Source: Alphaproteobacteria bacterium (lineage in GTDB: Bacteria > Pseudomonadota > Alphaproteobacteria > Bin95). From it: a DNA stretch of 64,000 nt. The stretch covers positions 256,001-320,000 of the forward strand of contig OZ224045.1 of NCBI GenBank assembly GCA_963665325.3. The letters are read 5' to 3'. The first letter of the stretch is position 1; each line of letters begins with the position of its first letter. The translations under genes were made by a program, and so were the position numbers. Under the pieces are notes generated by a model that saw only the letters and a list, made by a program, of their open reading frames with translations, did not search any database and was not told the DNA's origin. This document shows positions 3,153 to 28,802 of the stretch, piece by piece.

Positions 3153-3911
3153 TCAATAAGCGGAGATACCGCCCTCGGCAGGGATCACCGCACCGTTCAC
3201 CATGCGCGACTCGTCGGATGCAAGGAAGAGCCCGATATTGGCAATGTCCTCCGGCTGGCCGACGCCGAATGGATAGCTCTCGAATGTGGAGACCGACCCC
3301 TCGCGCGGCCGCTCCTCGTTCGGCTGGCGGTAGCGGGCGCGGATGCGCTCGGTCAGGATAAGGCCGGGGCAGATGACATTGGCGCGCACGCCTTCGTCGG
3401 AATAGGAGCCGGCGAGCGAGCGGGTGAAGGAAATCAAGCCACCCTTTGCAGCCGAATAGATGTGCGCCGGATGGTTGCCGCGCAACGCTACGACCGAGGA
3501 AATATTGATGACGGCCCCGCCGCCGCCCGCGACCATGTGAGGCACGACATGACGGCACATCAGCATCGGCCCCTTGAGGTCGAGCGGGATCGTGCGGTCC
3601 CAGACCTCGAGATCGACCTCGTGGATCTTCGTGTCCTCGACGACCGATCCGCCGGCGCAGTTGAACAGGATGTCGATGCGCCCGAACTCCGCCATTGCCG
3701 CCGCCGCACAGGCCGCCGCCGAGACATCGTCGGTCACGTCGGTGCGGTGGAACGCAGCCCCGGCGTCCGCCGCCGTTGCGGCTCCGGCCGCCTCGTCAAT
3801 CTCGGCCACCATCACCTTCGCCCCCTCGCGGATGAAGATTCCGGTAGCCACTCTTGCGATCCCGGACCCGGCGCCGGTAATGATTGCGACCTTCCCTTCG
3901 AGGCGTCCCAT
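3153..3911 (-). CDS. SDR family oxidoreductase (tandem paralogue)
   Basis: MGRLEGK start at 3911; TGAGSGIA, YSAAKGG; near-identical to 2385-3140. Confidence 0.93.
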   Translation of the reverse strand: MGRLEGKVAIITGAGSGIARVATGIFIREGAKVMVAEIDEAAGAATAADAGAAFHRTDVTDDVSAAACAAAAMAEFGRIDILFNCAGGSVVEDTKIHEVDLEVWDRTIPLDLKGPMLMCRHVVPHMVAGGGGAVINISSVVALRGNHPAHIYSAAKGGLISFTRSLAGSYSDEGVRANVICPGLILTERIRARYRQPNEERPREGSVSTFESYPFGVGQPEDIANIGLFLASDESRMVNGAVIPAEGGISAY

Positions 3912-5602: not shown

Positions 5603-6583
5603 TCATCCGCGCAGGTCCGTGAGCAGCGGCATGACGTTGCTGGCGAAGCGTTCGATCTGCTCCGAGCGCCGGTCGTAGGGACCTACGAGATCGACCACGA
5701 CATGCTTGGCGCCCGCCCGATGGAAATCGCGGATGCGCTCGGCCACCTGCTCGCCGGTTCCGAGCGCCGCATAGCGCGCGGCTGCCTTGCGAAAGTCCAT
5801 GGCATAGCGTCGCGACAGCGACTCGGTCGCGATATCGAGTGCGCGCTCATAGCTGTCGTCGATGCGTGCGAACAGTAGATGGCCGGTGCCGAACGGCACC
5901 TCGCCGCGTCCTGCCGCCTCGGCCGCCTGCCCTATTTGGTCCAGCGCCCGCGCGAACATATCGGGCGTCACCACATAAGAGACATAGCCATTCGCGAGCC
6001 GGCCCGCGCGCCGCAAAGCTGGCGGACGCCGTCCGCCGCACCAGATCGGCGGGCCGCCCGGTTGCCTCGGCGGCGGCAGCATCGGCACATCCTCGAAGGA
6101 GAAATAGCGGCCGGAGTAGCTTGCCGGCCTGCCCGACCAGAGCGCGCGAATCGCTTCGATGCACTCGGTCAAGCGGCGCCCGCGCTCCTCGCGAGGCACG
6201 CCGCATACCTCGTATTCCTTGGGGAACTCACCGCCGACACCGACGCCGAAGATAAACCGCCCCTCCGTCAGGTGGTCGAGCGTAGCGGTCATCTTCGCGA
6301 CCGGGCCCGGATGGCGAAGGGGCAGGAGATAGAAGCCCGTACCGAAGACCAGTCGCCGGCTCGCCACTGCCGCCTGAGCAATCATGAGCAAGGGATCGAG
6401 GAAGGGGATCGCGAAGGAGACATGGTCGCCCAACCAGATCTCGTCGAAGCCCTTCGCGTCCACGTCCTCGACAAACGACACCAGGTCATCGATCCGCGGC
6501 TGCCACGGGCCGGTCGGCGAGTCGCCCTCACGGTGGATCGTCTGGATTCCGAGTTTCAGTCCCTCTTCGAGCCGGAGCGCCAT
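5603..6583 (-). CDS. LLM class flavin-dependent oxidoreductase
   Basis: IWLGDH, LRHPGPVAKMTATLDHLTEGRFIFGVGVG, PPIWCGG. Confidence 0.9.
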   Translation of the reverse strand: MALRLEEGLKLGIQTIHREGDSPTGPWQPRIDDLVSFVEDVDAKGFDEIWLGDHVSFAIPFLDPLLMIAQAAVASRRLVFGTGFYLLPLRHPGPVAKMTATLDHLTEGRFIFGVGVGGEFPKEYEVCGVPREERGRRLTECIEAIRALWSGRPASYSGRYFSFEDVPMLPPPRQPGGPPIWCGGRRPPALRRAGRLANGYVSYVVTPDMFARALDQIGQAAEAAGRGEVPFGTGHLLFARIDDSYERALDIATESLSRRYAMDFRKAAARYAALGTGEQVAERIRDFHRAGAKHVVVDLVGPYDRRSEQIERFASNVMPLLTDLRG

Positions 6584-22738: not shown

Positions 22739-23620
22739 TCAGGATCGCGGCAATCCGCGCAGCCAGTCCGAGAGCGCCTTGCCGATCTCGTCGGGGGAGT
22801 CTTCCTGGATGAAGTGGCTTCCCTTGACCTTTGCTACGGTCTGGTTCGGCCAGCCGAGGCAAAAGTCGCGCTGCGGGCCCGTTAGGATGGCTCCGGGTTC
22901 GGCATCGATGAACAGCTTGGCGACATCCGAGGCCGCCAGCCATTCCGAATAGGCGCGGACGATCTCCACCACGTCTTCCGGTTCCCCAGAGATGGGAATC
23001 TCGCGCGGCCAGGTCAGGGTTGGGCGGCGGTCCTCGCCCGGCGTCGCGAAAGGCCGGCGGTAAACCACCATTTCCTCCTCGGACATCTTCCGCAGGATGG
23101 AACTCGGGAGCACACGCTCGACGAACACGTTCTTCTCCAGCACCATCCCTTCGCCAGCCGGCGAGCGGAAGCCCTGGAACACGGCCTTCGCCGCTTCCGG
23201 CCATTCCTCCCAAGTCACCGGCCGTACGAGCGCCTCCATGTAGCAGAAGCCCCGCACCCGGTCGCGGTGCCGGTTGCCCCAGTCGAAACCGAGCGCCGAA
23301 CCCCAGTCGTGGATGACGAAAACGGCATTGCCTCCGAGGCCGACGGCATCGAGGAATCCGTCCAGATATTCGCGGTGTTCCACGAAGCGGTAGCTGCCGG
23401 GCCCGGGATCGTCGAGCTTGTCGCTGTCGCCCATGCCGATCAGGTCCGGCGCCAGACACCGGGCCTGCCCTGCAACATGCGGCATGATGTTGCGCCAGAG
23501 GTAGGACGATGTCGGATTGCCGTGCAGGAACACGACCGGGTCGCCCTCCCCCATCTCGACATAGGCCATCCGCTTGCCCTTCACCTCGACAAAGGACTTC
23601 GGCAGTTCGGCTGCATTCAT
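22739..23620 (-). CDS. haloalkane dehalogenase (LinB/DhaA type)
   Basis: [19 protein letters not shown] nucleophile, [20 protein letters not shown]. Confidence 0.93.
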
Positions 23621-23626
23621 GGACGG

Positions 23627-24415
23627 CTATTTCCCGGTAAAGTTCGGTTTGCGTTTCTCGGCGAAGGCCCCTACGCCCTCGCGCCCGTCAGCACTGGCAG
23701 CGCGGGCGGCGATGGAACGGGACTCCAGCTCCATCTGCGTTTCGAGACCGTTCTGGAAGCTCTCCATCATCAACCGCTTGACCATGCCATAGGCTCCTGT
23801 CGGTCCTTCGGCGAAGGCGCGCGCCTGCTTTTCCGCCTCCACCATCAACTCGCCGTCCGGAACCACGCGATCGACGATGCCGAGTGCCATGGCTTCGGCG
23901 GCGCTCAGCAGCCTGTTCGTGAGCGCCAGTTCCTTCGCACGGCGGAAACCCGCCAGCCGGGGCAGGAACCAGGTCGAGCTGCCGTCCGGCGACAGTGCGG
24001 CCGCGGTATAGGCCATGGTGAACCTGGCGCCCTCGCCCGCGAAGACGACGTCTCCCGTCATCGCGAGCGACATCCCGCCGCCGGCCGCCATACCGTTGAC
24101 AGCGATGACCACCGGGGCATCCATCCGGTTCATCACGGCAATGCCGGTATGAAGGCTCGTGGTCATCTCGGCCAGCACCGACTCGACCTTGTCGCCCGCC
24201 TGCAGGAAGAACTTGAGGTCGCCGCCCGCGCTGAACATCTTGCCGGCACCGGTCATCAGCACGGCCCGCACCGCCTTGTTCTTGTCGCAGTCGATCATGA
24301 TGCGGTGGAACGCCCGGACGAACTCCAGGTCGAAGGCATTGGCGGCGTCGGGGCGATTGAGCGTCACATAAGCGAGGCCGTCGCGGACTTCGTAGAGGAT
24401 CGAATCTTCGGACAT
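23627..24415 (-). CDS. enoyl-CoA hydratase/isomerase family protein
   Basis: TLNRPDAANA, FSAGGD, AVNGMAAGGG, AFAEKRKPNFTG; start MSEDS at 24415. Confidence 0.92.
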   Translation of the reverse strand: MSEDSILYEVRDGLAYVTLNRPDAANAFDLEFVRAFHRIMIDCDKNKAVRAVLMTGAGKMFSAGGDLKFFLQAGDKVESVLAEMTTSLHTGIAVMNRMDAPVVIAVNGMAAGGGMSLAMTGDVVFAGEGARFTMAYTAAALSPDGSSTWFLPRLAGFRRAKELALTNRLLSAAEAMALGIVDRVVPDGELMVEAEKQARAFAEGPTGAYGMVKRLMMESFQNGLETQMELESRSIAARAASADGREGVGAFAEKRKPNFTGK

Positions 24416-24422
24416 CGCGCGA

Positions 24423-25403
24423 TTACTCCACCAGCAGGACCGTCGAACCGGTCGTCTTGCGTCCTTCCAGGTCCTCATGCGCTTTCCTGGCGTCGGCGAG
24501 CGCATAGGTCTGGTTGACCTCGATCCTGACCTTGCCCGACTCCACCATCGCGAACAGCGCCCCGGCCGAGTCCTGTACTTCCTGCTGCGTCACGGCGTAA
24601 TTGGCCAGGGACGGACGAGTGACATAGAGCGAGCCCTTGGCTCCGAGAACGCCGGGCGCGAAGGGCTCGGCCGGGCCGGAGGCATTGCCGAAGGAGACCA
24701 TCAGGCCGCGCGGGGCCAGACAATCCAGCGATTCGTCCCAGGTGGACTTGCCGACGCTGTCATAGACCACCGGAACGCCCGCGCCGCCGGTCAGCTCGCG
24801 CACCTGCCGGGCTATGCCGCCTTCCTTGTAGTCGATCATGTGGTCGTAACCGTAACCGCCTGCGAGCGCGCATTTCTCGGGCCCGCCCGCCGTGCCGATG
24901 ACGGTGGCGCCGAGCGCCTTTGCCCACTGTCCGGCAATCAGGCCGACACCGCCGGCCGCCGCGTGGAACAGGATGGTCTGTCCCGCGCTCACCTCAAAGG
25001 TACGATTCAACAGATATTCCACCGTCATGCCCTTGAGCATCATGGCGGCGGCCTGCTTGTCATCGATCCCGTCGGGCAGCTTCACCAGGCGGTCGGCAGG
25101 CATGATGCGCGCCTCGGAGTAAGAGCCCGGCGGGCCCATGGCGTAGGCGGCGCGGTCTCCCGGCCGGATATGTTCGACGCCTGCGCCGACCGCCTCGACA
25201 ACGCCTGCGCCCTCGGTGCCGATGCCGCTCGGCATGGGCAGTTCATACAGCCCGGAGCGGTGGTAGGTGTCGATGTAGTTCAAGCCGATGGCCGTTTGAC
25301 GAATCAGGGCTTGGCCGGGTCCGGGGTCGCCCACCGTTACCGTGCGAAGTTCCATCGCCGATGGCGGACCCGGCCTATCGATCTGGATGGCTTTGACCTG
25401 CAT
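24423..25403 (-). CDS. qor: NADPH:quinone oxidoreductase (zeta-crystallin/Qor type)
   Basis: GLNYIDTYHRSG, LKGMT, HAAAGGVG, VSFGNASG, GRKTTGS. Confidence 0.9.
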   Translation of the reverse strand: MQVKAIQIDRPGPPSAMELRTVTVGDPGPGQALIRQTAIGLNYIDTYHRSGLYELPMPSGIGTEGAGVVEAVGAGVEHIRPGDRAAYAMGPPGSYSEARIMPADRLVKLPDGIDDKQAAAMMLKGMTVEYLLNRTFEVSAGQTILFHAAAGGVGLIAGQWAKALGATVIGTAGGPEKCALAGGYGYDHMIDYKEGGIARQVRELTGGAGVPVVYDSVGKSTWDESLDCLAPRGLMVSFGNASGPAEPFAPGVLGAKGSLYVTRPSLANYAVTQQEVQDSAGALFAMVESGKVRIEVNQTYALADARKAHEDLEGRKTTGSTVLLVE

Positions 25404-25471
25404 CTTGCCTCACTTTATGTAGCGTCTTCCCGTTGTTTCGCGCATCGCCGCAGATTCCGCAAGGAGCGTCC

Positions 25472-26689
25472 ATGACCCGTTACGCCGACATGCCGGAAGG
25501 AATGGCCAAGCATCTGGCCCGTCTGTCGCTGCCTGAAATCGAGGGCGGCGCGTTCGTGTCCGGGCCGCCGCTCGCCGAACGCCGGATCGCTGTCGTTTCC
25601 TCCGCCGGCCTCGGCAGGCGAGGCGACCGGCCATTCGGTCCGGGAGCCGTCGACTACAGGGTGCTCCCGTCAGATACCGACGCGAACGACATCCTGATGA
25701 GCCATATCTCAGTCAACTACGACCGGACCGGCTTCCAGCAGGACCTCAACATCGTCTATCCAGTGGAGCGGCTGAAGGAAATGGCCGCCGGCGGCGAGAT
25801 CGGCGGCGTTGCAGCCCACCATTACTCCTTCATGGGCGCCAGCGATCCTGTGCCGATGCAACCCTTTGCCGAGGATGTTGCGGCCGCCATGCAGGCCGAA
25901 GGCGTCGACACCGCGCTTCTGGTCCCCGTCTGACCGAACTGCACGCGCGCCGTGTGCGCGCTCGCCCACTATCTGGAACGCAAGGGCATCGCGACCGTGG
26001 TTGTGGCCCTCGTGCATGAACATGCCGAGGCGATCGCCAATCCCCGCACGCTGTCCGTGCCCTTCGAGCTCGGCCGGCCCCTCGGAGTTCCCGACAATCC
26101 GGAATTCCAGCTTCGGGTGTTGCGCGCTGCGCTTGCACTGCTCGACCGGCCGGCCGGCCCCGTGCTGGAAGAGTTTCCCGATCCGGCGCCGCAGCCTGCG
26201 GATTACGATGGCTGGGCCTGTCCAATAGCCCTTCCCCGGCCCGAGACGGTCCCGGAAAACGGCCACAAGCGGCTTGTCGCGGAGGAAGTCGCGCGTCTGC
26301 GGCCCTGGTGGGACCTGGCAAAGGAGCGGCGCGGGCGCACCACCGTCGGCGCCAGCGGCTATGACATCGAGGAGGCAGCCCGGATGGTCTGTCGCTACGC
26401 GGATGGCGGCAAACCGGACGATCCGGGAGTGGAACGCAAATTGTCGCTCTCGCTGAAACTCGCTTGCGACGACCTGATGGCCTTCTACACGGAAGCCGCA
26501 ACGGCGCAGCCCGGAGGGGCCGGCTCGCAAGACCTCTCCGACTGGTTCTGGGGCGAAACGGCAGCTGGCAAGGCGCTGCTTGCGTTGCGCGAGCGGGCGG
26601 GCGGCGAAGAGGACAAAGGCATGAAACTGGTCGGCAGTCTGCTCATCCTGCCGAGAAATCAGGCGCACCGCGCAAGGGCCTCGAAATAG
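25472..26689 (+). CDS. GrdB/PrdB-like (glycine/sarcosine/betaine/D-proline reductase selenoprotein B family) selenoprotein, Sec at TGA 25931-25933, with extra C-terminal domain, ~405 aa
   Basis: AAGGAG then ATG 25472; IAVVSSAG, DLNIVYPVERLKEM, HYSFMG; in-frame readthrough LLVPV-U-PNCTRAVCALAHYLERKGI...PFELGRPLG. Confidence 0.87.
25945..25961 (+). promoter_or_regulatory. putative bacterial SECIS element
   Basis: Stem GCGCGC/GCGCGC, loop CGUGU starting 17 nt after the UGA, with G at loop position 2 followed by U. Confidence 0.62.
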
Positions 26690-26714
26690 CCTGATTCTTG
26701 GGCCTATATGGCGC

Positions 26715-28802
26715 ATGGCGCGACAGGGCGACAAGAGAGGCAAAGGAAGCGCGGGGCAGCGGCGCCGTGGTGGTCCGAGTCTGCGCAAAGAGCCGGGCGG
26801 CAAAGCCGGCCCCGCCGCGAAGCCGCCGCTTTCGCCCGGTCGAAATCTCCAAGGGAAAGCGGGGACAGCGGCGTCCGGGAGGAAACCGGCGAGGCGAACC
26901 CGCAGCAGGAGAAGAAGATCCGGTGGCGCGTCCGGCGCGCGTCGATCCCTGTGGCGGCGTTTGTTCTCGGGGATTGCGGTCGCCGGCGTATGGGGACTAA
27001 TCGCCCTTATCGCGGTACTCGCCTATTTTTCCTACACCTTGCCCGACGTCGAGCAGGCTGCGGAAAGCGGCCGGCGTCCCGGCATTTTCCTCAACGATGT
27101 GGACGGCAATCCCGTTCTCGCGAAGGGCGACCTTTACGGCGACCCCGTGAATGCGGCCAAGCTGCCTGACTATGTGCCGCGCGCCGTCATCGCAATCGAG
27201 GACCGGCGCTTTTACGACCATAGCGGCATCGACCTGATCGGCCTGGCCCGGGCCTTGTGGGTCAATATCGTCCAGGGAAGCGTGCGCCAGGGTGGCAGTA
27301 CGATTACCCAGCAATTGGCGAAAAACGTCTTCCTCACGCCGGAGCGGTCCATCGAGCGCAAGATTCGCGAGGCGTTGCTCGCATTCTGGCTAGAGTGGCG
27401 TTACGACAAGGACCACATCATTTCGCTATACCTGAACCGGGTCTATTTCGGTTCCGGGGCCTACGGCATCGACGCCGCCGCAAGGCGCTTCTTCTCCAAG
27501 CCGGCCGCCGAACTCGGCCTCTGGGAAGCCGCTGTGCTCGCCGGCCTGCTGAAGGCGCCGAGCCGCCTCTCGCCCGTGGCCAATCCGGCGGGCGCCGGCG
27601 AACGCGGTCGGCTTGTGCTGAGAGCGATGGCCGACGCCGGCTTCATCTCCGCCGAGCGGGCCCAGAAGGCGGCCGCTTCCACCTTGCGGACCAGCGCCGA
27701 ACCCGATGGACGCGGCTATTTCGCGGACTGGGTACTGGGCCAGGTCAACCGGCGCATGGGAATGGTGGACCGGGACCTCCGTATCGCCACGACCTTCGAT
27801 CCCGGCCTGCAACGTCTGGCGGCCGAAACGGTTGACGCAGCGCTGGCGGGCAAGGCCAATCCCTCTCAGGCGGCGCTTGTCGCGATGTCGCCCGATGGCG
27901 CCGTGCGGGCGATGGTAGGCGGAAGGGACTATGGCACGAGCCAATTCAACCGCGCGACGCAGGCGGTCCGCCAGCCGGGCTCGGCCTTCAAATTGTTCGT
28001 ATATATGGCGGCGCTGGAGCGAGGCCTGCATCCGGACGACATGGTGACCGATGCCCGGGTCGATGTGGGCGGCTGGAAGCCGAGGAATTTCGACGGCCGG
28101 TTCCGCGGCTCTGTCCCCATGCGGGAAGCCTTCGCGCAATCGCTGAACGCCGCTGCCGTCCGTCTTGCCGACCGGGCCGGGCGCGCGCGCGTTGCCGAAG
28201 CCGCGCGCCGGCTAGGCATCACCTCGGACCTGGCGCCCGATCTCACCATTGCGCTCGGCTCCAGCGGCGTGAGGCTCATAGAGTTGACCAGCGCCTACGC
28301 CACCTTCGCGAATGGCGGCGCAGGCGTAATCCCGTACGGCGTTCGGGAGATCGAGGGCATATTCCGGCGGGCCGGCACCGGCGCGGGCGAGGCCGTGGCG
28401 CCGGGCGTGGTGGCATCCATGAACGATCTTCTGGCCGCCGTCGTTTCGCAGGGCACCGGCGAGGCCGCCCGGCTTGCCGACCGGCGGTCCGCAGGCAAGA
28501 CAGGCACCAGCCAGTCCTTCCGCGACGCCCTCTTCGTGGGGTTCACCGGGAACCTGGTTGCCGGCGTCTGGGTCGGCAACGACGACGGCACGCCCATGGA
28601 CGAGGTTACGGGCGGCGGACTGCCGGCGCGCATCTGGCACGATTTCATGGCGGCGGCCCATGAAGGCGCACGGGCGCGCCCGATTCCCGGTATCGGCTCG
28701 GGCAGAACGCTCTACCCCTTCCGTCCGAAGATCGGCGGCCGGGCCTCGGCGACATCTGTCGTGCCGTCCGCAGCGCCGCCCGACCCGTCCAACGACCCTT
28801 AG
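26715..28802 (+). CDS. class A penicillin-binding protein (PBP1A family)
   Basis: Transglycosylase EDRRF, GGSTITQQLAKN, RKIRE; transpeptidase SAFK, SLN, KTG. Confidence 0.95.
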   Translation: MARQGDKRGKGSAGQRRRGGPSLRKEPGGKAGPAAKPPLSPGRNLQGKAGTAASGRKPARRTRSRRRRSGGASGARRSLWRRLFSGIAVAGVWGLIALIAVLAYFSYTLPDVEQAAESGRRPGIFLNDVDGNPVLAKGDLYGDPVNAAKLPDYVPRAVIAIEDRRFYDHSGIDLIGLARALWVNIVQGSVRQGGSTITQQLAKNVFLTPERSIERKIREALLAFWLEWRYDKDHIISLYLNRVYFGSGAYGIDAAARRFFSKPAAELGLWEAAVLAGLLKAPSRLSPVANPAGAGERGRLVLRAMADAGFISAERAQKAAASTLRTSAEPDGRGYFADWVLGQVNRRMGMVDRDLRIATTFDPGLQRLAAETVDAALAGKANPSQAALVAMSPDGAVRAMVGGRDYGTSQFNRATQAVRQPGSAFKLFVYMAALERGLHPDDMVTDARVDVGGWKPRNFDGRFRGSVPMREAFAQSLNAAAVRLADRAGRARVAEAARRLGITSDLAPDLTIALGSSGVRLIELTSAYATFANGGAGVIPYGVREIEGIFRRAGTGAGEAVAPGVVASMNDLLAAVVSQGTGEAARLADRRSAGKTGTSQSFRDALFVGFTGNLVAGVWVGNDDGTPMDEVTGGGLPARIWHDFMAAAHEGARARPIPGIGSGRTLYPFRPKIGGRASATSVVPSAAPPDPSNDP

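Follow-up and report, generated by a model that had tools for sequence, protein, structure and literature searches.

In a stretch of 64,000 nt from an alphaproteobacterial genome (positions 256,001–320,000 of contig OZ224045.1, assembly GCA_963665325.3; referred to below as the window, on which coordinates are based unless a contig is named) we found a complete gene for a selenoprotein that resembles PrdB of the D-proline reductase. The gene encodes 405 residues, is read across a single in-frame TGA and belongs, judging from its sequence, to a large family for which we use the working name long PrdB-like. We consider it likely that the protein is decoded by SelB and the selenocysteine (Sec) tRNA under the direction of a hairpin and that it acts alone as a selenol/thiol-based reductase. 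The gene and its elements are located as follows:

25472..26689, plus strand: complete coding sequence of the PrdB-like selenoprotein, 405 residues, about 44 kDa, stop codon TAG included
25461..25466, plus strand: Shine-Dalgarno sequence AAGGAG, 5 nt ahead of the ATG, read directly from the sequence
25931..25933, plus strand: UGA codon for selenocysteine (U154) within a U-P-N-C motif, aligned with Cys in full-length homologues
25940..25942, plus strand: codon of Cys157, the UxxC partner of U154, column invariant in a 48-sequence alignment (A2)
25945..25961, plus strand: selenocysteine insertion sequence (SECIS) hairpin, with stem GCGCGC (25945–25950), loop CGUGU (25951–25955) and stem GCGCGC (25956–25961)
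26219..26221, plus strand: codon of Cys250, an invariant Cys-Pro in the interdomain linker, invariant in alignments A2 and A4
25568..26143, plus strand: PrdB-like alpha/beta domain, residues 33–224, from the TIGR04483 and Pfam GRDB matches and an AlphaFold (AF2) model
26264..26686, plus strand: all-helical, family-specific C-terminal domain, residues 265–405, from the AF2 model

A single frame extends from the ATG at 25472–25474 to the TAG at 26687–26689, and its sole internal stop is the TGA at 25931–25933, which takes the place of residue 154. Read-through at this position yields ALLVPV-U-PNCTRAVC. The initial annotation of the window had already proposed this frame, broken by one TGA and preceded by AAGGAG, and direct reading of the sequence agrees with it.

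We compared the gene with its relatives at the level of protein and DNA. Of the 8000 candidates scored in a word-indexed homologue search, 633 proteins reached E 0.001 or better. The 33 nearest of them (70–95% identity) are all called as pieces of 233–248 aa beginning right after the TGA. Remoter homologues (37–46% identity, 405–419 aa) are unbroken and carry Cys at the position of the window's TGA; the Cys-containing homologues for which the initial annotation had suggested looking thus exist as full-length, single continuous polypeptides. When one genome per species was scanned, relatives were found in at least 572 species genomes, among them proteins 85–90% identical to the window protein over residues 1–405. 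In all of the best 80 of these loci (80/80) the codon for residue 154 is TGA, and they come from Alphaproteobacteria, Desulfobacterota, Chloroflexota/SAR202, Binatia, Gemmatimonadota and Beta- and Gammaproteobacteria. Two of the 80 are truncated by contig ends. The 78 complete relatives, 398–446 aa in length, each contain exactly one in-frame stop, and their start codon lies 148–158 codons upstream of the TGA (152–154 codons in 75 of the 78). When a Cys form served as the seed of a second scan, 46 loci were obtained, which added 32 TGA sites and 16 TGC/TGT sites. Since the same TGA recurs in 80 of 80 and in 32 further related loci, a sequencing error can be excluded. Metagenome contigs in runs from two studies also cover the TGA codon and show no difference among the matches listed; all are mixed-community contigs, and no piece spans the whole gene.

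The hairpin begins after a spacer of 11 nt (25934–25944), so that the stem starts 14 nt from the U of the UGA. The stem and loop given in the initial annotation are correct, while the distance of 17 nt downstream stated there has to be replaced by the 11-nt spacer. In E. coli fdhF, UGA and hairpin are likewise separated by 11 nt. As expected of a bacterial SECIS element, the hairpin is located directly 3' of the UGA and has G/U in its apical loop. No SECIS family was recovered when 25000–27000 was scanned with Rfam at E up to 10; the only two matches, MH_s10 (16.1 bits vs. 81) and sR28, were at chance level. Across 81 aligned sequences 92.5% of the cells of the 6-bp stem are paired, and changes on both sides occur at two of the six stem pairs (10 cells), a value as high as which was reached in 0 of 500 column shuffles. 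When the pairing partner is slid by 1–3 columns, stem pairing falls to 18–73%. Synonymous third positions within the stem show only bases that preserve pairing, in contrast to the loop and the positions outside the stem, which vary freely. Five or more of the six stem pairs form at 111 of 113 TGA sites and at none of 16 Cys (TGC/TGT) sites, where the maximum is four; the hairpin tracks the TGA and not the protein sequence. The coupling of the hairpin to the TGA and its loss in Cys forms are new observations. Coverage by metagenome contigs is also unusual at this place: the contig depth summed at 25912–25962 reached 332, 700 and 123 in three runs compared to about 13–240 in other bins, and many loose contig ends lie at 25924–25928 and 25960–25980. 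The block of about 50 nt formed by UGA and SECIS is highly conserved in DNA, so that contigs from many organisms and paralogues pile up on it.

The machinery for Sec incorporation is complete in the host genome, which consists of 5 contigs and is rated 100% complete. We detected selB (442.2 bits), selA (535.3 bits) and selD (270.6 bits), all above their cut-offs, as well as one tRNA-Sec with anticodon tca on contig C5; all of selA, selB, selC and selD, the search for which had been proposed in the initial annotation, are therefore present. We also assessed the distribution of the family in a sample of 301 alphaproteobacterial genomes, 30 of which contain a relative at E 1e-30 or better. selA was found in 20 of the 22 genomes with a TGA form, the two exceptions being 69% and 92% complete, and in none of the eight genomes that have only stop-free (Cys) forms; these counts are descriptive only, since related genomes are not independent. 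Conversely, 20 of the 39 selA-positive genomes contain a TGA form, and in 8 of the 20 selA-positive TGA-form genomes selA is located within 10 kb of the gene. This tight linkage of the PrdB-like family to sel genes in Alphaproteobacteria is new.

An extremely unlikely alternative is that the TGA is a true stop, leaving two genes or a pseudogene, or that it is an assembly error, in which case there would be no selenoprotein gene. Gene callers do split the gene, as seen in the C-terminal pieces that stand for the 33 closest homologues, and 148 of the 150 best database representatives of the C-terminal domain are 291 aa or shorter. The TGA, the 153 codons upstream of it and the hairpin are nevertheless conserved together across phyla, the Cys forms are unbroken, the TGA forms track selA, and the metagenome contigs from two studies show no codon difference among the matches listed. 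Cys homologues, conserved loci, a TGA-tracking hairpin and the genomic machinery are four independent lines which, on comparison of sequences, all indicate that the internal TGA encodes selenocysteine and that the gene is intact. The three circumstances named in the initial annotation as fatal to this reading did not turn up: sel genes are present, the two halves are not separately translated in the Cys homologues, and position 25931 is not a sequencing error.

Two observations were made alongside these comparisons. The loci L111 (TGA at 3765 and 5817) and L140 (TGA at 5763 and 9852), on betaproteobacterial or unassigned contigs, contain two TGA-bearing PrdB-like genes each, with the motifs PI-U-PKC and PV-U-PNC, 2–4 kb apart and each followed by its own hairpin. 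One contig of 217 nt from an RNA library, which differs at 26 positions and stems from a relative, crosses TGA and hairpin; DNA carry-over is possible, and we did not count it as evidence of expression.

We then assigned the protein to its family. The Pfam profile GRDB (PF07355) matches residues 79–151 with 27.1 bits at a gathering cut-off of 22. The best NCBIfam model is PrdB (TIGR04483) with 100.3 bits (E 1.1e-28) at a cut-off of 300, aligning residues 33–224 with profile positions 26–218 of 238. The subfamily model TIGR01918 (45.4 vs. 65.45 bits) and GrdB (TIGR01917, 40.4 vs. 602.2 bits) remain below their thresholds, as do the GrdH, GrdF and GrdB models in general (NF040794 and NF040795 among them) and one further equivalog (53.8 vs. 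775). Since the Pfam score is above and the NCBIfam scores are below cut-off, the protein is a member of the GRDB superfamily yet neither PrdB nor GrdB. Its description as a GrdB/PrdB-like selenoprotein in the initial annotation is supported by the GRDB profile match and by PrdB being the best NCBIfam match. The attributes "hidden" and "orphan" do not apply, as members of the family are encoded in at least 572 species genomes and the Cys forms have already been named by NCBI ([quoted passage not shown]).

The window protein has the layout of the long PrdB-like family, i.e. about 400 aa with a PrdB-like domain, an invariant Cys-Pro linker and a helical C-terminal domain. Across the 48 sequences of alignment A2 the residues U/C154, P155, C157, C250, R63, S80, D84, D91, N93 and R192 are invariant, and the same applies to the F-x-L-G-R-P-L-G-x-P block at 198–207 (including R202), Q213, W279, E341 and P347. 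R287 and R289 are nearly invariant. C161, which extends the motif of the window protein to UxxCxxxC, is not conserved across the family.

The AF2 model computed from the 48 sequences has a mean predicted local distance difference test score (pLDDT) of 91.7 and a predicted template modelling score of 0.92. It shows a Rossmann-like alpha/beta domain at about residues 32–240, in which U154 is placed between strand 147–151 and helix 155–170 and C157 is predicted in the first turn of this helix. The linker that holds Cys250-Pro251 is modelled with low confidence (mean pLDDT 59 for 241–250 and 67 for 251–260) and is followed by an all-helical domain of residues 265–404. With VIA-align 2 the N-terminal domain reached a best Z of 8.4 (root mean square deviation 3.1 Å, 141 aligned residues) against generic Rossmann-type structures (SDR, LacI-type). 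The whole model had no Foldseek match at E 0.001 or better, and no PDB sequence matched the family profile at E up to 1.

Folded alone, the C-terminal part has a pLDDT of 88.1. None of 40 members of the domain matched a Pfam family, with nothing better than E 0.08. The structure search gave a best VIA-align 2 Z of 4.6 with no chain at Z 5 or above, and Foldseek, which the initial annotation had recommended for this domain, returned a best E of 2.8. The model therefore suggests a domain without a solved structural relative among the chains searched, which is not proof of a new fold. Searched against 1.84 billion proteins, a profile of the domain matched 976 representatives with E values of 0.001 or better. 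In the 148 short sequences among the best 150 the domain mostly starts near residue 76, as expected for post-TGA fragments; the remaining two are 368 and 411 aa long, and no other architecture of the domain appeared among the best 150 of the 976. Because these best 150 matches show only the layout described here or fragments of it, the domain is a constant feature of the whole family and not an extra of this gene, as the initial annotation had assumed. The region beyond the PrdB-like part also comprises about 180 residues (225–405) instead of the roughly 150 given there.

The protein shares with PrdB (TIGR04483), its best-scoring family, the Sec residue in a UxxC motif. It differs in its length of 405 residues compared to a profile of 238 positions, in the added helical domain and the invariant Cys, in the lack of a PrdA match in the genome (a search without positive control) and in its aerobic host. 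Homology to GrdB is limited to the Sec-containing C-terminal part of GrdB, profile positions about 270–418; the N-terminal roughly 270 residues of GrdB are missing from the window protein, and GrdA and GrdE were not found in the genome. The third Cys of the UxxCxxC motif given for GrdB (PMC13188914) is not present at that spacing.

We searched for partner genes and analyzed the surroundings of the gene. PrdA/GrdE (PF09338, TIGR04480) and GrdA (PF04723) gave no match beside the gene, as already noted in the initial annotation, or anywhere else in the genome, although these searches had no positive control. Among the genes of the genome is one for subunit I of a haem-copper oxidase (COX1), as expected of a host that respires oxygen; the initial annotation had assumed a host that uses oxygenases. 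Two neighbouring genes in the window were assigned to families:

24423..25403, minus strand: NADPH:quinone reductase gene, divergent, 68 bp from the ATG (NF008024, 381.4 vs. 348 bits)
22739..23620, minus strand: haloalkane dehalogenase gene, two genes upstream (NF002938, 433 vs. 241 bits)

Other neighbours are an enoyl-CoA hydratase gene, an acyl-CoA ligase gene and, downstream, a PBP1A-family gene. The neighbourhood was then surveyed in 127 loci, with open reading frames (ORFs) picked by a GC3 criterion and one representative of each BLAST cluster checked against Pfam. No metabolic neighbour is general across the 127 loci, and no neighbour family was found in more than 14 of them. The largest clusters, TauD and a VTT-domain protein, are lineage-local (13–14 Halieaceae loci). 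The neighbours with the widest spread are sel genes (selA, selB, plain or fused selD), present in 22 loci. The NADPH:quinone reductase cluster occurs in 11 loci, as the first upstream gene in 9 and two genes downstream in 3 further entries. A MEDS/HTH regulator was observed in 6–8 loci, a family III CoA-transferase in 7, a MerA/Lpd-like FAD disulfide oxidoreductase in 5–7 and a GST-type disulfide oxidoreductase in 4. A type II haloacid dehalogenase (TIGR01428, 150 vs. 125 bits) was found in 5 loci, directly downstream in 4 and upstream in 1, and the haloalkane dehalogenase family neighbours the gene in 3. The dehalogenases are too sparse to be taken as more than a lead.

We infer that the protein works alone since neither a pyruvoyl partner (PrdA/GrdE) nor GrdA was found in the genome. 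SelB and tRNA-Sec would decode the UGA at 25931–25933 as Sec, directed by the hairpin, and the resulting selenolate would attack an oxidised or electrophilic substrate. A U154–C157 selenenylsulfide would then form and could be re-reduced by cellular thiol systems (thioredoxin-type or flavoprotein), possibly via Cys250 on the flexible linker. In favour of this reading are also the absence of a neighbour family shared by more than 14 of the 127 loci, the modelled place of U154 between a strand and a helix, and the redox-type genes nearby (NADPH:quinone reductase, MerA/Lpd-like FAD disulfide oxidoreductase and GST-type disulfide oxidoreductase). The many invariant charged residues speak for one defined substrate, small and probably anionic, and less for a general exchange of disulfides. 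A function outside the Stickland reactions, as put forward in the initial annotation, is a reasonable assumption from the sequence. Several points weigh against the stand-alone reductase. The PrdA, GrdE and GrdA profiles matched none of 14 control genomes, so that the partner searches are weak negatives, and a partner from an unrecognised family may exist. Each of the redox-type neighbours occurs in a few lineages only and may be no more than a matter of local gene order. The fold match of the N-terminal domain is generic, with 738 chains at Z 5 or more. As to the signal that would direct decoding, the fold energy of the hairpin in the single sequence is no better than that of shuffles (z = 0.90, in G+C-rich DNA), for which reason its support must be comparative.

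Other functions have to be considered. It is possible, if somewhat doubtful, that the protein is a general selenol/thiol-disulfide oxidoreductase without a carbon substrate, acting as a reductase of protein or small-molecule disulfides or as a scavenger of peroxides or electrophiles, with Sec kept for its reactivity under oxygen. The predicted position of UxxC at a helix N-terminus would suit such an enzyme, as would the NADPH:quinone reductase, FAD disulfide oxidoreductase and GST-like disulfide oxidoreductase genes nearby; no metabolic partner is conserved, and a table on thiol-based UXXC redox proteins in a marine survey includes the family (PMC1088965, Table 3). However, the protein has the fold of the substrate-specific B proteins found in glycine and proline reductases and not a thioredoxin fold, and the invariant R63, D84, D91, N93, R192 and R202 together with the nearly invariant R287/R289 suggest a pocket for a small molecule. 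That the protein is the B subunit of a true Stickland-type reductase for glycine, sarcosine, betaine or D-proline, whose partners are distant or too diverged, appears very improbable. PrdB, GrdH, GrdF and GrdB are its best family matches and "proline reductase" is the label given to the family in the survey tables, but the equivalog scores are far below their cut-offs (100.3 vs. 300, 53.8 vs. 775, 40.4 vs. 602), PF09338, TIGR04480 and PF04723 have no match in the genome, no such partner recurs beside the gene in the 127 loci, the host has a haem-copper oxidase, and the extra domain of 180 residues is absent from PrdB with its profile of 238 positions.

We also considered, as an unlikely but more specific proposal, that the protein performs GrdB/PrdB-type chemistry in a self-contained manner without a pyruvoyl subunit, that Cys250 serves in recycling and that the family is the main reason why many aerobic Alphaproteobacteria keep the Sec machinery. 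The selenolate would attack the alpha-carbon of a carboxylic acid, and a pyruvoyl subunit would not be needed because the substrate already bears a good leaving group, for example when alpha-halo acids or other alpha-substituted carbonyls are reductively dehalogenated. In this scheme the pocket would be closed by the helical domain, and the linker Cys250 would resolve or recycle the selenenylsulfide. Dehalogenase neighbours, the adjacency to sel genes in 22 of 127 loci and the TGA form in 20 of 39 selA-positive genomes are weak hints in this direction.

Proteins of this kind have been catalogued before. The PrdB of D-proline reductase was described in Clostridium sticklandii (Kabisch et al. 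1999, cited in PMC1088965). In the Sargasso Sea survey "Proline reductase (PrdB)", with a UXXC motif and 42 sequences, ranks third in abundance among the families (Zhang, Fomenko & Gladyshev 2005, PMC1088965), and Table 2 of the Global Ocean Sampling survey gives PrdB, pfam07355, UxxC, with 235 selenoproteins and 110 Cys homologues (Zhang & Gladyshev 2008, PMC2398784). "Proline reductase" selenoproteins are also recorded for Anaeromyxobacter, Geobacter uraniumreducens and the Olavius delta-1 symbiont (PMC1794560, PMC1976440). In the passages on selenoprotein families of two reviews from 2022 and 2026, the name covers only the clostridial D-proline reductase (PMC9312934, PMC13188914). As described in the surveys, the marine "PrdB" shares with the window family pfam07355 and a UxxC Sec motif, and both are abundant in bacteria other than clostridia, those of oxic marine waters included, and have more Sec than Cys forms. 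We infer that the two are the same family, a comparison made by description. The entries from Anaeromyxobacter, Geobacter uraniumreducens and Olavius delta-1 are probably of the same kind; one of our loci, L054, comes from an Olavius delta-1 record. The survey sections on this family do not separate the long form of 405 aa from short forms or true PrdB, and mention neither the C-terminal domain nor the absence of PrdA. Our literature search found no paper characterising the non-clostridial family or separating it from true PrdB. The gene is thus a newly read member of an already catalogued, functionally uncharacterised family, whose non-clostridial members have a C-terminal domain of their own and no PrdA that we could find.

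For annotation this means that one selenoprotein of 405 residues should replace two fragments or a missing gene. The miscall is systematic, as 148 of the 150 best representatives of the C-terminal domain are truncated pieces. Since the family tracks and often adjoins the Sec machinery in the Alphaproteobacteria sampled, knowledge of its function would explain much of aerobic marine selenium use.

The same correction applies to two further genes for short PrdB-like selenoproteins, not described before, which we predict from sequence motif and hairpin in this genome:

contig C4, about 442352–443233 (L094:1453–2334), plus strand: short PrdB-like selenoprotein, paralogue 2, 294 aa, PV-U-PVC at residue 166
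contig C4, about 88160–89050 (L141, TGA at 2150–2152), plus strand: short PrdB-like selenoprotein, third gene, AN-U-PVC

Paralogue 2 scores 96.9 bits with TIGR04483, is 29% identical to the window protein over residues 33–230 and is located between genes for an MFS transporter and an enoyl-CoA hydratase. Its UGA is followed by an 11-nt spacer and a hairpin with stem UCAGAC/GUCUGA and loop CGUGA. In the third gene the spacer is again 11 nt, the stem CCAGAC/GUCUGG and the loop CGUGA, so that the first stem pair is changed on both sides in comparison to paralogue 2. Both hairpins have the geometry of the one in the window with different stem letters.

The SelD of this genome is a fusion protein of 720 aa encoded on contig C1 at about 977950–980109 on the plus strand (L010:334–2493). 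Its N-terminus is a pyridine nucleotide-disulfide oxidoreductase domain (TIGR03169, 434 vs. 310 bits), and the SelD part scores 268 bits at a cut-off of 125. The fusion also adjoins a PrdB-like gene in 9 related loci (e.g. L131).

Within 25200–27000 a promoter scan found no promoter-like site, and two terminator-like sites were within shuffle expectation. Two ORFs on the plus strand upstream of the gene have no Pfam match, one of 332 aa (24477–25475) antisense to the quinone reductase gene and one of 416 aa (23267–24517) antisense to the enoyl-CoA hydratase gene; both look like the shadow ORFs of high-GC DNA. The 332-aa ORF terminates in an ATGA that overlaps the start of the selenoprotein gene and could mislead a gene caller.

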